A program made the translations under genes and the position numbers. A stretch of 64,000 nt of DNA, from NCBI GenBank assembly GCA_951406725.2, contig OX597833.1, positions 22,010,001 through 22,074,000 on the forward strand, in the 5' to 3' direction. Shown here piece by piece: positions 4,071-24,419 of this stretch (position 1 is its first letter; every line of letters starts with the position of its first letter). The notes below the pieces were generated by a model. The model was not told where the DNA came from, did no database searches, and saw nothing but the letters and a program-made list of their open reading frames with translations. This DNA comes from Octopus vulgaris. Taxonomy: Eukaryota.

Positions 4071-5023
4071 AACAAATATATAAATATATATATATATATA
4101 TATTTACATATACTAGATAAGAACTGATAAATTAAATTTGATATATGTAAACATATTTAAATATATTTTAATCTTGGTTTGAAATTGTTTCTGAGTCATA
4201 GAAACACTTTCTCTCTCTCTCTCTCATAACCAAAGGAATGAGAGAGAGAGGGTAAGAGAGAGAGATAGAGAGAGAGAGTAAATGAGTGCATTTAGAAATT
4301 ATGTTAAGCCAAGGTGTAAATGAAGTCTTACACACTGAGTTTATATAACCACTATATTATATTGATATAAATCAAACATTGGTAAACTGCAACCCATGGA
4401 AATTTCCGAATGATACGTCAGACGAAAAATTGCCTTGAAATTTTTTTCTTTTAGTAATGAGGCCTGTTTGATGGTGAGCCAGGTCTCATGTAGCCTGTTT
4501 CTCATAAAACATTGCTAATTCCTGGAATTAAGCAACAGATTTATGGCTTGTTGATTCACCATCATCATCATTTTCATGTGCTTTTTTTCTATGCTGGCAT
4601 GGGTTGGAAAAGGCTTGATCTTCAGCTGGGTGCCCTTTCTGTCATTTTATATGCAAATCCATGAAGGAATGACACATAAAGGAATGACACCAATGTTCTA
4701 TAAAAGACATGCACACACATTCACTCTCTCTTTCTCTCTATCTTCCCCCCCTCTCTCTCACACACACACACACAAACATGTATATATTGGGTTGTCAGAT
4801 AAATTCATTTGATTTTTTGTTTATTATTTTCCATTTCTTTTAATCATTTCGAATGTTATTTGAATTAATAGAAAGATATTTTTATCGGAGATGTACTTGC
4901 ATAGAAAGTGATTTGATCTCAGATCGTGTGCTGAAACGAAAACAATTGCAGCGTGGAAGGTGTTTGTAAGCCATTTAAGAAACACACAAAAGCCGTTAGA
5001 TTCACTTCAACATTTAAGTTTAA

Positions 5024-5074
5024 TTTGTCAAAATATTTTCGTAGCTTTAAGACCGCGACCTGTTCACTGACAAA
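5024..5074 (-). ncRNA. Type I hammerhead ribozyme, G3-C8 core variant (left arm)
   Basis: Minus strand reads tttgtca-GTGAACA-g-gtcgc-ggtcttaaa-gctac-GAAA-atat-TT-tgacaaa: 7-bp stem I, palindromic stem III AATATT. Confidence 0.65.
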
Positions 5075-5099
5075 ATCTCACGGAGATGCAGCATGGATT

Positions 5100-5150
5100 T
5101 TTGTCAGTGAACAGGTCACGGTCTTATAGCAACGAAAATATTTTGACAAA
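5100..5150 (+). ncRNA. Type I hammerhead ribozyme, G3-C8 core variant (right arm)
   Basis: tttgtca-GTGAACA-g-gtcac-ggtcttata-gcaac-GAAA-atat-TT-tgacaaa; stem II is partly decayed. Confidence 0.6.
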
Positions 5151-5449
5151 TTAAACTTAAATGTTGAAGCGAATTGAACAGATTTTGTGTGTTTCTTAAA
5201 TGGCTTACAAACACCTTCCATGCTGCAATTGATATTTTTATCATAGTGTTTTATGTTTTTTTAAAACTTTTCTAGCTCTATTCTTCTAACTTTCATTTAT
5301 CATTTCTAAATTTGAAAAGAACTTTTCCTCTTTTTACCCATATGACGAGGGAGTGCCGAGAAGAAAAATAAATAAAATGAAAAAAAAAATTATCTGTCAA
5401 CCCAAAACAGTGTTTTCTCAACCATTTTTCGTGAATTCATACCCCAGGG

Positions 5450-5870
5450 CCAGACCATGAATTGAGAATTCTACTGCAATGTTTTGAAGCATTTGAGAGA
5501 GACCATTTAGCAAAAGTGACCAGATTTGTGGAGCATGAAGAATTAGATTTTTCACGACAAAAATGCACCCTGTCACAAAGTTCTCCTTACTTATGAGTTT
5601 CTCACCAAAAACAACATGGTATTGCTTCCATACCCACCCTATTCACCAGATTTAGCATCTGCAAACTTCCACCTCTTCCCAAAATAAAAATGCAGCTCAA
5701 AGGTGGCTGTTTTAATACCATTGTCAAGATCCAGAGTGAATCGCAGAACGTCCTCAACTTGCTCACCGAAAACGACTTCCAGGCTGGATTCCAAAAGTGG
5801 CAGGAATGCTTACTGCACAAGGTGACTGTTTCCAAGGAGACAATGTTAAAACTTAAGTAAATAAAATTAT
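5450..5870 (+). pseudogene. Mariner transposase C-terminal remnant
   Basis: Manual translation gives FHDKNAPCH...EFLTKNNMVLLPYPPYSPDLASANFHLFPK (HDNA and YSPDLAP motifs) followed by a stop or frameshift. Confidence 0.85.
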
Positions 5871-22621: not shown

Positions 22622-24150
22622 TAGAGTGGCCCTTAGCAATAGGTAATTTTCCGAAAGTTAAAATTTTGCTGCTCCCACCCCCTAATCCTGTTCCAATAAA
22701 CAAAACAGCAGGATGTGCAAGATTTCAGCTTAATCAGACAACTGCTAGGCAACCCTCAAACACCTTGAAGTTGGAACATAGTATATACAACGATTAATTC
22801 TGTTCAAAAGTGGTATACTGTTCCCTTTCTTGACCACTTTCTTTTTTTCTTCTTAGAGAAATTTATGTGGACACATCCAGGCAACCCTAACAGCTTAGAA
22901 AATTCCTATTTTTAAAATCTTACAATGTGAGATATTCATCAACAGTACTTTGGATGTTGAAAGGTCTTTGCTGAGAAAATTGGTGCCAACAGAAAATCTC
23001 GTGAAGAAAGTTTTTGTACCAGGAGTTACAAAAGACGAAAACTCAATGTTTGTAAAGGAAGAAAAGTCATTTTGGTGCAGAATGTACCTCTTCAGTTCAT
23101 CTTTCTTTTCTTTCTCTTCTTCACCTGTGTCTTCTTGAGCAATATTTACCTTCACCTGTGTTGGAACATTATCAAATATGGATAGAACCACAGTTTCGGG
23201 AGCTGAGTACCAGAGATGGTTGGAAAATTTCTTTGCAGCAGCCTTACTGATATCTGGATCAATATCCTGATAATTTATCAGTTGGCACATGAATAGGAAA
23301 TTATGATAAGGTGCTTTAATTACTTCTGATGACAGAAGTAATTACACTTGAGCAAGAAAAATACATATTCTTCTTAAAGAGTGCTTTTCCCTTGGAAATA
23401 ACTGAAATTGATCTTGAAACAGATATATCTTGAATGCACAAATTGCTTTTGACATCCACTTAGCATGACTTACAGCTCCTGGTGTACGAAACAATATCCT
23501 GTTCTTCAGAATGCTGCCAAGAAAGACCATCATTAACTCCAACAATTCTTGGTAATCATTTCGTTATTGTTTCTGCATAGAGAGGTGGTATTCAAGAAAT
23601 CCAAGAATGGTAAAATGGACATCATCAGACACTTCATTGCTACCAGTAATGTAAACCCTCTTGTTAAGATTTATCCAGAAATCTTTTGAAAAACGCTATG
23701 TCTGGACCAGAAGTTGCACCCATCAGTGAGTCAAAACAGCTCCTAAAAACCATCTCAAAAATACAATGACAGCAAGGGAAGTACAACAGGTCATGATTGA
23801 ACAATTTTTCTAGATTTGTACAAGCACCATTTACTCGACGTGTGCTGCTTGATGTCGTATCACAGCAAAGTGCCTGAATTTTGTTGGTTATACCCCTCTT
23901 CTCCACTGCTTGGTAAACACCCATAGCTTGCTGTTCTCCTGAAGATGTTGGAATTTCAGGGACTCCCAACAATTGCTCCTTGCCTTGAAAAGTTACTATT
24001 ATTGCCAGTCTATCAACCTTTTCAATGCCTGTGAGTGCTGGGAGCAGCTTTCCATCCCAGTGCAACACTAATTCTTGACAGCCGTTTAGGTTAAATTTGT
24101 GTTGTATTTCTTTGTGTCTCGCTTCTCTAAATATTGTTCTAAGGCATTGA
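22622..24150 (-). pseudogene. Decayed DNA transposase, hAT-related (hATm-like, HWDGK type), with one terminus at ~22622
   Basis: Collinear broken ORFs: LHWDGKLLPALTG..VDRLAIIV..EQLLGVP..CCDTTSS..GAC..LLYFPCCH; ELLEL..FLG..PGAVSHAKWMSK; NHLWY. Terminus TAGAGTGGCCC lies next to a TA tract. Subgroup assignment is from memory of the motifs. Confidence 0.8.
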
Positions 24151-24419
24151 AAATAAGTATACAAAGCACATGGCATTATAAAAATGGAGAGGTTGTAAAC
24201 ATGGTAATACAACTTTGTCAGGGCTACCAACACAACAGGGGAAGATCTATGTCATAATGCTCTGCAACAAAATGAATGAATGCTTACAAGTAATTACAAA
24301 TAAATTAACTTGTATCAAACTCTTTTGCCAAACCACTAAGTTACAGGGATGTAAACACACCAATGCTGGTTGTCAAGCAATAGTGGGGGGCAAACGAAGA
24401 CACACAAATGCATACATAC

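Follow-up and report, generated by a model that had tools for sequence, protein, structure and literature searches.

Which kind of mobile element leaves two inverted arms, each with a hammerhead-like motif, in octopus DNA, and why does the motif carry G3-C8 in place of the canonical C3-G8 pair? The question is raised by an insertion at 4875-5242 in a stretch of 64,000 nucleotides (nt) from Octopus vulgaris (contig OX597833.1, positions 22,010,001 to 22,074,000), referred to here as the window and numbered from its first letter. The answer proposed here, which we hold with a probability of about 0.65, is that the unit consists of two short copies, set head to head, of the 5' end of a Penelope-like element (PLE), made from two capped, uncleaved RNAs and bearing a natural G3-C8 hammerhead that is likely kept by selection. 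The genome searched has 2.8 Gb in 227 contigs.

Anatomy of the insertion

The insertion lies between two copies of a 12-bp direct repeat, GATATTTTTATC, at 4875-4886 and 5231-5242, and the element overlaps this duplication by 1 nt at either end. Its inverted arms (4943-5075 and 5099-5231) are 133 nt each, 93% complementary and separated by 23 nt, while an extension of 56 nt (4887-4942) is found on one side only. The true start of the right arm is at 5084, within the 23-nt spacer. A first-pass annotation of the window had described a 12-bp target-site duplication, arms of ~135 bp and a one-sided 56-bp extension, and all three are confirmed. The host repeat that received the insertion is ~270 bp long and has 16-bp terminal inverted repeats (4787-4802 and 5390-5405); 40 related copies were scored at 76-86% identity, the window itself being included at 100%. 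Since the target site is single in 14 of the 14 other host-repeat copies fetched, the 12-bp duplication is a product of the insertion. The features, each with its basis in brackets, are as follows.

4787..4802, + strand: left terminal inverted repeat of the host repeat (40 related host-repeat copies)
5390..5405, - strand: right terminal inverted repeat of the host repeat (window sequence)
4875..4886, + strand: target-site duplication, left copy (single in 14/14 empty host copies)
5231..5242, + strand: target-site duplication, right copy (single in 14/14 empty host copies)
4887..5075, - strand: long arm, probable reverse transcript primed at the distal (tail) site (family comparison)
4887..4942, - strand: PLE tail, between two reverse-transcription start sites, about codons 11-30 of the element's open reading frame (ORF) (tail as defined in PMC11167929)
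4887..4974, - strand: PLE ORF start, MAYKHLPRCNCFRFSTRSEIKSLSMQVHLR, resembling the N-terminus of the sister family's intact ORF (family copy L119)
5024..5074, - strand: minimal hammerhead motif of the left arm, with G3 at 5067, C8 at 5062 and one mismatch in stem II; predicted cut between 5031 and 5030 (sequence)
5076..5083, no strand: variable head-to-head junction, in which G5083 is a likely cap-derived base (junction comparison)
5084..5231, + strand: short arm, from the putative transcription start A5084 to the proximal priming site, with the ORF ATG at 5200 (5'-end comparison across arms)
5100..5150, + strand: minimal hammerhead motif of the right arm, with G3 at 5107, C8 at 5112, two mismatches in stem II, an extra G at 5114, GAAA at 5134-5137 and AAUAUU at 5137-5142; predicted cut between 5143 and 5144 (sequence)

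Relationship to Penelope-like elements

Longer copies of the unit connect it to a coding element. In 976 copies the upstream flank is longer and, by way of DNA rich in (TACA)n, reaches the end of an ORF, and at one locus (L110) a frame of 1,025 amino acids (aa) lies beside the same arm, with reverse transcriptase (RT) motifs, a CxxxCxxC linker and, at the C-terminus, a GIY-YIG domain (Pfam E 1.8e-05). A Pfam search of this frame gave no RT match, and the RT assignment comes from motifs visible in the translation and from the names of homologs. The protein has 198 homologs at E<=0.001, the closest named relative being from Octopus vulgaris and 57% identical. Its linker, CQSNCAVC, fits the CX2-5CxxC pattern of the Neptune/Nematis clades. 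The protein of a sister family is 54% identical, with frames intact at 1,312 aa, and the frame that crosses from the arm to the extension resembles the N-terminus of this 1,312-aa ORF (9/22 residues identical for family copy L119, pairwise E 0.003). Sister-family copies also end at the same two places as those of the window family. In one of these sister families (family B, at L111), about residues 250-500 of the ORF form a long Asn-rich low-complexity insert, which family A, that of the window, does not have.

An inverted 5'-truncated copy with a one-sided tail is typical of PLE anatomy (PMC8557442); the tail reaches from one internal RT start site to a second one, within the ORF start (PMC11167929). 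Copy and tail are both found here, together with two further marks of endonuclease-bearing (EN+) PLEs, namely pseudo-long terminal repeats (pseudo-LTRs) and target duplications of variable length in DNA that is AT-rich or (TA)n. The symmetric termini and fixed-length target duplications of miniature inverted-repeat transposable elements (MITEs) and foldback elements are absent, as are the head-to-tail tandem units, each with a hammerhead, of non-LTR retrozymes; the copies are head-to-head pairs and solos. The window unit is thus almost certainly the 5' end of a PLE rather than a free ribozyme element. A MITE or foldback DNA transposon, bounded by long terminal inverted repeats, would likewise have long inverted arms and duplicate its target, but the duplication length varies, the tail is one-sided, solo and truncated arms occur, and the direct link to an RT-GIY-YIG ORF refutes this origin, to which we give practically no weight.

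The family is large. Candidates for the whole unit number 2,814, and all 40 that were scored are near full length and 90-94% identical (the window itself aside). An exact pattern for the motif has 4,740 matches in the genome and none in the reversed control, so the hammerhead motif is not due to chance. Thirty loci taken in genome order (L031-L060) have two arms in 19 cases and a single arm in 11, two of the 30 being the two arms of one insertion. Apparent target duplications range from 7 to 16 bp with a mode of 12 (17/30 loci scored as non-microsatellite, one mismatch allowed). Four loci (L039, L097, L162 and L190) have an identical head-to-head junction, with the same flank seen in three; this is one insertion re-amplified within another repeat. 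Internal deletions that remove part of the hammerhead occur at L271, L272, L289, L291 and L293 and are likely template jumps across stems. Sampled words of the window family are present in sequencing runs under four organism labels (A-D), and the family therefore likely predates or crosses species borders; no RNA data set is on record as containing these words.

The hammerhead motif and the 3-8 pair

Both arms contain the core GTGAACA, at 5107 on the forward and 5067 on the reverse strand, with a 7-bp stem I, GAAA, AAUAUU and one additional G between A9 and stem II. In the first-pass annotation these parts were laid out as a hammerhead with a stem II, and the layout holds except for that stem, which is disrupted in the right arm of the window unit (GTCAC/GCAAC) as well as in the left (GTCGC/GCTAC) and intact in other copies only. 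The two window arms are decayed and probably inactive. The canonical letters C3 and G8 are absent. The other hallmarks are present, namely a Watson-Crick 3-8 pair, U4 G5 A6, A9, G12 A13 A14, A15.1-U16.1 and H17, the fixed core letters being partly imposed by the search patterns. Three helices can be drawn: the predicted fold of an intact copy has stems I and II (-15.4 kcal/mol), and stem III consists of 2 bp and a palindromic loop. The base between 9 and 10.1, the G10.1-C11.1 pair and the palindromic stem III are traits shared with the minimal type I hammerheads in PLE pseudo-LTRs (Cervera and de la Pena 2014, PMC4209133). The UUU cleavage triplet, earlier called atypical, is not strikingly so, since it is present in an oyster PLE hammerhead and U17 is common in that study. 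It had also been predicted that CUGANGA searches would miss such a core, and Rfam indeed gives no match at the gathering threshold in the window; at E<=10 there is only microsatellite noise, with no hammerhead among the 150 matches listed of 204. A metagenome scan with a looser core pattern yielded 44 chance matches, none of which (0/44) combines the free stem II pair with a stem I of at least 4 bp.

When positions 3 and 8 are left free, G3-C8 is found in 95 of the first 100 motif matches listed, and the other five are single changes. Looser patterns give 206 non-G3 matches genome-wide, about a third of the first 100 of which belong to a sister family, and 281 matches with G3 but not C8. The same architecture with C3-G8 has 5,459 matches (control 80) in families B, C and D, where its position is unchanged, stems I and III differ, stem II has A-U for G-C, and C17 is the usual letter. 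An old family, E, has 91 matches with C8 required and position 3 free, mostly G3. Between E and A, N7, loop II and loop III have changed, the flanks are 66% alike (58% when shuffled), and stem III stays palindromic with altered letters (AAUU in E, AAUAUU in A). Among 36 distinct motif rows the 3-8 pair is CG in 17, GC in 13 and other in 6 (the alignment holds 37 motifs, 36 of them distinct, after 6 of a random 43 were dropped as junction-damaged or redundant). A tree of 32 3' flanks built without the motif parts A and E from B, C and D with a support of 0.996. The swap thus arose once and has been kept.

The compensated core claimed in the first-pass annotation thus represents real covariation against the C3-G8 sister families, and G3-C8 is very probably kept as a genuine pair. 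The proposal in that annotation, that independent variation of positions 3 and 8 among copies would disprove the pair, is not valid, since dead copies decay singly and it is the level of families that counts. Families A and E carry U17, as do D and part of the B copies. A G3-C8 variant performs better when position 17 is G than when it is C (PMC3884650), and U17 in A and E would fit avoidance of a G3-C17 trap.

If G3 and C8 had been fixed by drift or by another constraint, their complementarity would be a coincidence. Each of the two letters creates CAG, the upstream DNA resembles a branch point followed by a 3' splice site (ACTAAC...TTTCTCAG just upstream in 976 copies), and the core of family B is relaxed, all of which could be read in this way. 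The chance that two core changes fall at 3 and 8 and remain complementary is, however, about 1 in 150 (estimated as 1/55 x 1/3), both letters are kept in E and A despite flanks so little alike, and no spliced copy or joint has been seen, which makes coincidence quite improbable. A natural G3-C8 hammerhead was found neither in the published literature searched nor among the 56 motifs of the PMC4209133 alignment (Fig. S3, 0/56), where the known swap is U3-A8; the work of Lunse et al. on PLE hammerhead dimers lies outside this coverage and could contain a case. The natural G3-C8 core appears to be new, whereas the element class, its inverted tailed form, its hammerhead, the U3-A8 variants and the rescue of activity by G3-C8 in the laboratory are already known.

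Formation of the head-to-head pairs

Exactly one tail is present in 94 of 100 head-to-head pairs (30/30 of those selected on whole-unit similarity and 64/70 of the others), a few of the 100 being duplicates of one insertion and not independent. The opposite ends of the arms are also fixed, with 69/79 arms beginning no more than 2 nt from the AG that precedes ATGCAGC, in a count that left out loci chosen for long upstream flanks. Among arms that start exactly at that A, 28/33 are preceded by G at a position that is C in the source DNA; as judged by eye, the partner arm could have supplied the G in about 10 of these 28. In other retroelements, copying of the cap adds a G. The arm 5' ends likely correspond to a capped RNA end ~23 nt before G3, judging from the junctions. 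Since the copies run through the predicted cut site, their templates were uncleaved.

Within the 30 units that best match that of the window, 10/21 pairs have arms of different loop II class (random pairing would give 0.57), as have 3/34 other, unselected pairs. Seven discordant pairs join an 8-nt to a 9-nt loop with several base changes. Because point decay cannot produce multi-base loop differences between arms, two RNA templates are favoured, and two different RNA molecules, both capped and uncleaved, were probably the templates of the arms. The first suggestion that the unit was inserted by target-primed reverse transcription is supported; that it went in as one fold-back unit is not, since some pairs have arms that differ at multi-base subfamily markers. 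A single RNA or complementary DNA (cDNA), folded back or copied twice, with later gene conversion as the source of arm differences, would account for the loop class common to both arms in 31/34 unselected pairs, for the low overall arm-to-arm mismatch (4%, 514/12,714 sites) and for the strict one-tail rule, which implies a coordinated event. It is nevertheless improbable, given near-random discordance in the best matches, a centre that is a variable junction and not a hairpin loop, and a separate 5' end on each arm. Nothing relevant to a two-template model of PLE inversion was found among the titles listed in a literature search.

A spliced exon 1 was considered as the origin of the 5' G and rejected, since the junctions share no upstream sequence. 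The putative start site (L119:1960-1983) resembles a branch point and 3' splice site (ACTAAC...TTTCTYAG) and may mark where an intron ends, as in D. virilis Penelope. Four RNA contig sets aligned to a family copy contain no joint spliced to the AG; ends, strand and level are invisible in these contigs.

Self-cleavage and its alternatives

From its sequence, the window-family motif would be expected to have measurable self-cleavage, an expectation towards which we lean only slightly. Lowest-energy cofolds did not yield a dimer with swapped stems III, and nearest-neighbour models do not score the hammerhead core. Truncated 5' ends were considered as a footprint of cleavage (of 530 matches the first 100 were screened and 52 of them fetched; the other 48 have an intact core and a small indel). 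This candidate was rejected because ends at an unrelated control T-run cluster alike, by eye, and there is thus no genomic footprint of cutting. C8-to-G copies (for example L031, L187 and L196-L198) occur with several loop classes and may reflect a mutation hot spot or mismatched source elements; an ancestral G3.G8 subfamily is not supported, G8 being spread over several loop classes and often confined to one arm. The core of family B (L111:9292-9333) is mostly CUGAUGC, with CUGAUGA in older members, a second natural core variant.

Several observations weigh against the reading proposed at the outset. Among truncated arms, 16/37 begin at -3 to +1 of the predicted cut, but the control T-run has the same clustering by eye, which leaves no footprint of cutting. 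Family B, which is young and has many intact 1,312-aa frames, mostly carries A9C (12/19 motifs). A G3.G8 mismatch is found in 41/98 family-type rows without C8, and in 4/146 arms compared with 16/5,528 at non-CpG G/C sites, about tenfold above background. A9C in B and the G3.G8 excess point to weak selection on catalysis in the clade. In PAc, the green anole Poseidon element, hammerhead mutants leave in vitro insertion unaffected, no reads end at the cut site, and the C3G/G8C double mutant is only partly active (PMC11167929). Start sites on the two PAc strands did not differ in vitro, whereas a one-tail rule holds for the octopus copies. The swap represents a single event in evolution, and the unvarying letters of stem and core, four stem II pairs among them, were demanded by the search patterns and have no value as evidence. 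The start site and the cap are read from junctions only, most unselected pairs have the matching arms that a single template would also give, and later gene conversion is a possible source of the state of the arms.

Some of these points agree better with a motif that has ceased to cut and is kept for the PLE protein as a fold or an RNA-pairing signal, in which G3-C8 preserves shape only. Copies made from uncleaved RNA, the lack of a specific excess of ends at the cut site, A9C, the G3.G8 excess, the behaviour of the PAc mutants and a stem III that remains palindromic while its letters change are all in its favour. The 3-8 pair, however, belongs to the active conformation, the laboratory double mutant partly restores cutting, and retention of the same pair from family E to A is more easily explained by catalysis; a purely structural role is on balance unlikely, though it is the strongest of the alternatives.

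Proposed mechanism

In the longer copies the arm sequence is linked to an ORF that encodes RT, a CxxxCxxC linker and GIY-YIG, and this ORF begins within arm and tail. A capped RNA would start ~23 nt before G3, from a promoter in the pseudo-LTR. By analogy with PAc, the protein would nick both strands ~12 bp apart in AT-rich DNA and prime internally at two fixed sites ~56 nt apart. The observed pattern is that the distal site, which gives the tail, is used for one arm and the proximal site for the other. Both cDNAs would extend through the uncut hammerhead to the cap, and joining of their ends by microhomology would leave a variable centre. Target-primed reverse transcription likely writes both copies into the staggered break. 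G3-C8 would stand in for C3-G8 as the core pair, with U17 avoiding the G3-C17 trap. The hammerhead is predicted to cut only slowly, as a dimer, and copies could form without any cutting.

More speculatively, and with odds that we place well below even, the palindromic stem III of the G3-C8 ribozyme might pair two element RNAs in the manner of a retroviral dimer signal, and a protein dimer might then prime one RNA per nick, with the tail site used on one RNA and the proximal site on the other. If true, this would account both for the inverted one-tailed insertions of PLEs and for hammerheads that are conserved yet barely cut.

Comparison with known systems

Each known system shares part of these features. 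PLE hammerheads (PMC4209133) also have a 2-nt palindromic insert in stem III, as in D. virilis, and opposite-strand pairs are reported there as here; the extra nucleotide is G in the window family and H in that consensus, with G in 1/56. In PAc (Frangieh et al. 2024, PMC11167929), the tail is likewise delimited by two RT start sites that lie internally, where the ORF begins, targets are AT-rich and uncleaved RNA is the insertion template. The first RT start site lies ~85-92 nt after the cut in PAc and ~88-90 nt here. PAc differs in a shorter tail (30-40 nt compared with 56), in an ATG inside the hammerhead instead of after it, and in the engineered origin of its C3G/G8C change, which is natural here; the CxxxCxxC linker and the use of one arm per start site are found here, unlike in PAc. 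The EN+ Neptune and Nematis PLEs (Craig et al. 2021, PMC8557442) have the C-terminal GIY-YIG, the CX2-5CxxC linker, the (TA)n bias and the inverted 5'-truncated copy with one-sided tail, a likeness by description and not by phylogenetic placement; unlike them, the octopus element has DKS instead of DKG and very many short copies that end at the putative start site.

Natural U3-A8 hammerheads are reported (PMC3088659; PMC4209133). Those of Perreault et al. 2011 (PMC3088659) are a compensatory change at 3-8 comparable to the present one, with a transition pair there and a purine-pyrimidine inversion here. Animal non-LTR retrozymes (bioRxiv 10.64898/2026.07.22.740005) are also short non-coding PLE derivatives with type I hammerheads, but they are head-to-tail tandems tied to cleavage and circles, whereas the octopus copies are head-to-head pairs or solos that end upstream of an uncut hammerhead.

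Surroundings of the insertion

The host repeat (4787-5405) resembles, by eye, an internally deleted mariner element, and we take it to be a mariner-like MITE. A PPYSPDLA-like stretch at about 5406-5700 is, again by eye, presumably a decayed mariner transposase fragment. A frame of 195 aa at 23664-24251 on the reverse strand, resembling a transposase fragment, is the sole non-repetitive long frame among the 12 listed.

Significance

Thousands of natural G3-C8 copies beside C3-G8 sister families complete the covariation of the hammerhead tertiary pair, and descriptors based on CUGANGA or U3-A8 overlook whole hammerhead families. How PLEs make inverted one-tailed insertions is an open question for which these copies offer countable evidence: the single tail of each pair, a 5' G that likely derives from the cap and arms of mixed subfamilies point to two uncleaved RNAs per event. 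Together, the G3-C8, C3-G8 and A9C families form a natural series for asking what the hammerheads of PLEs do.
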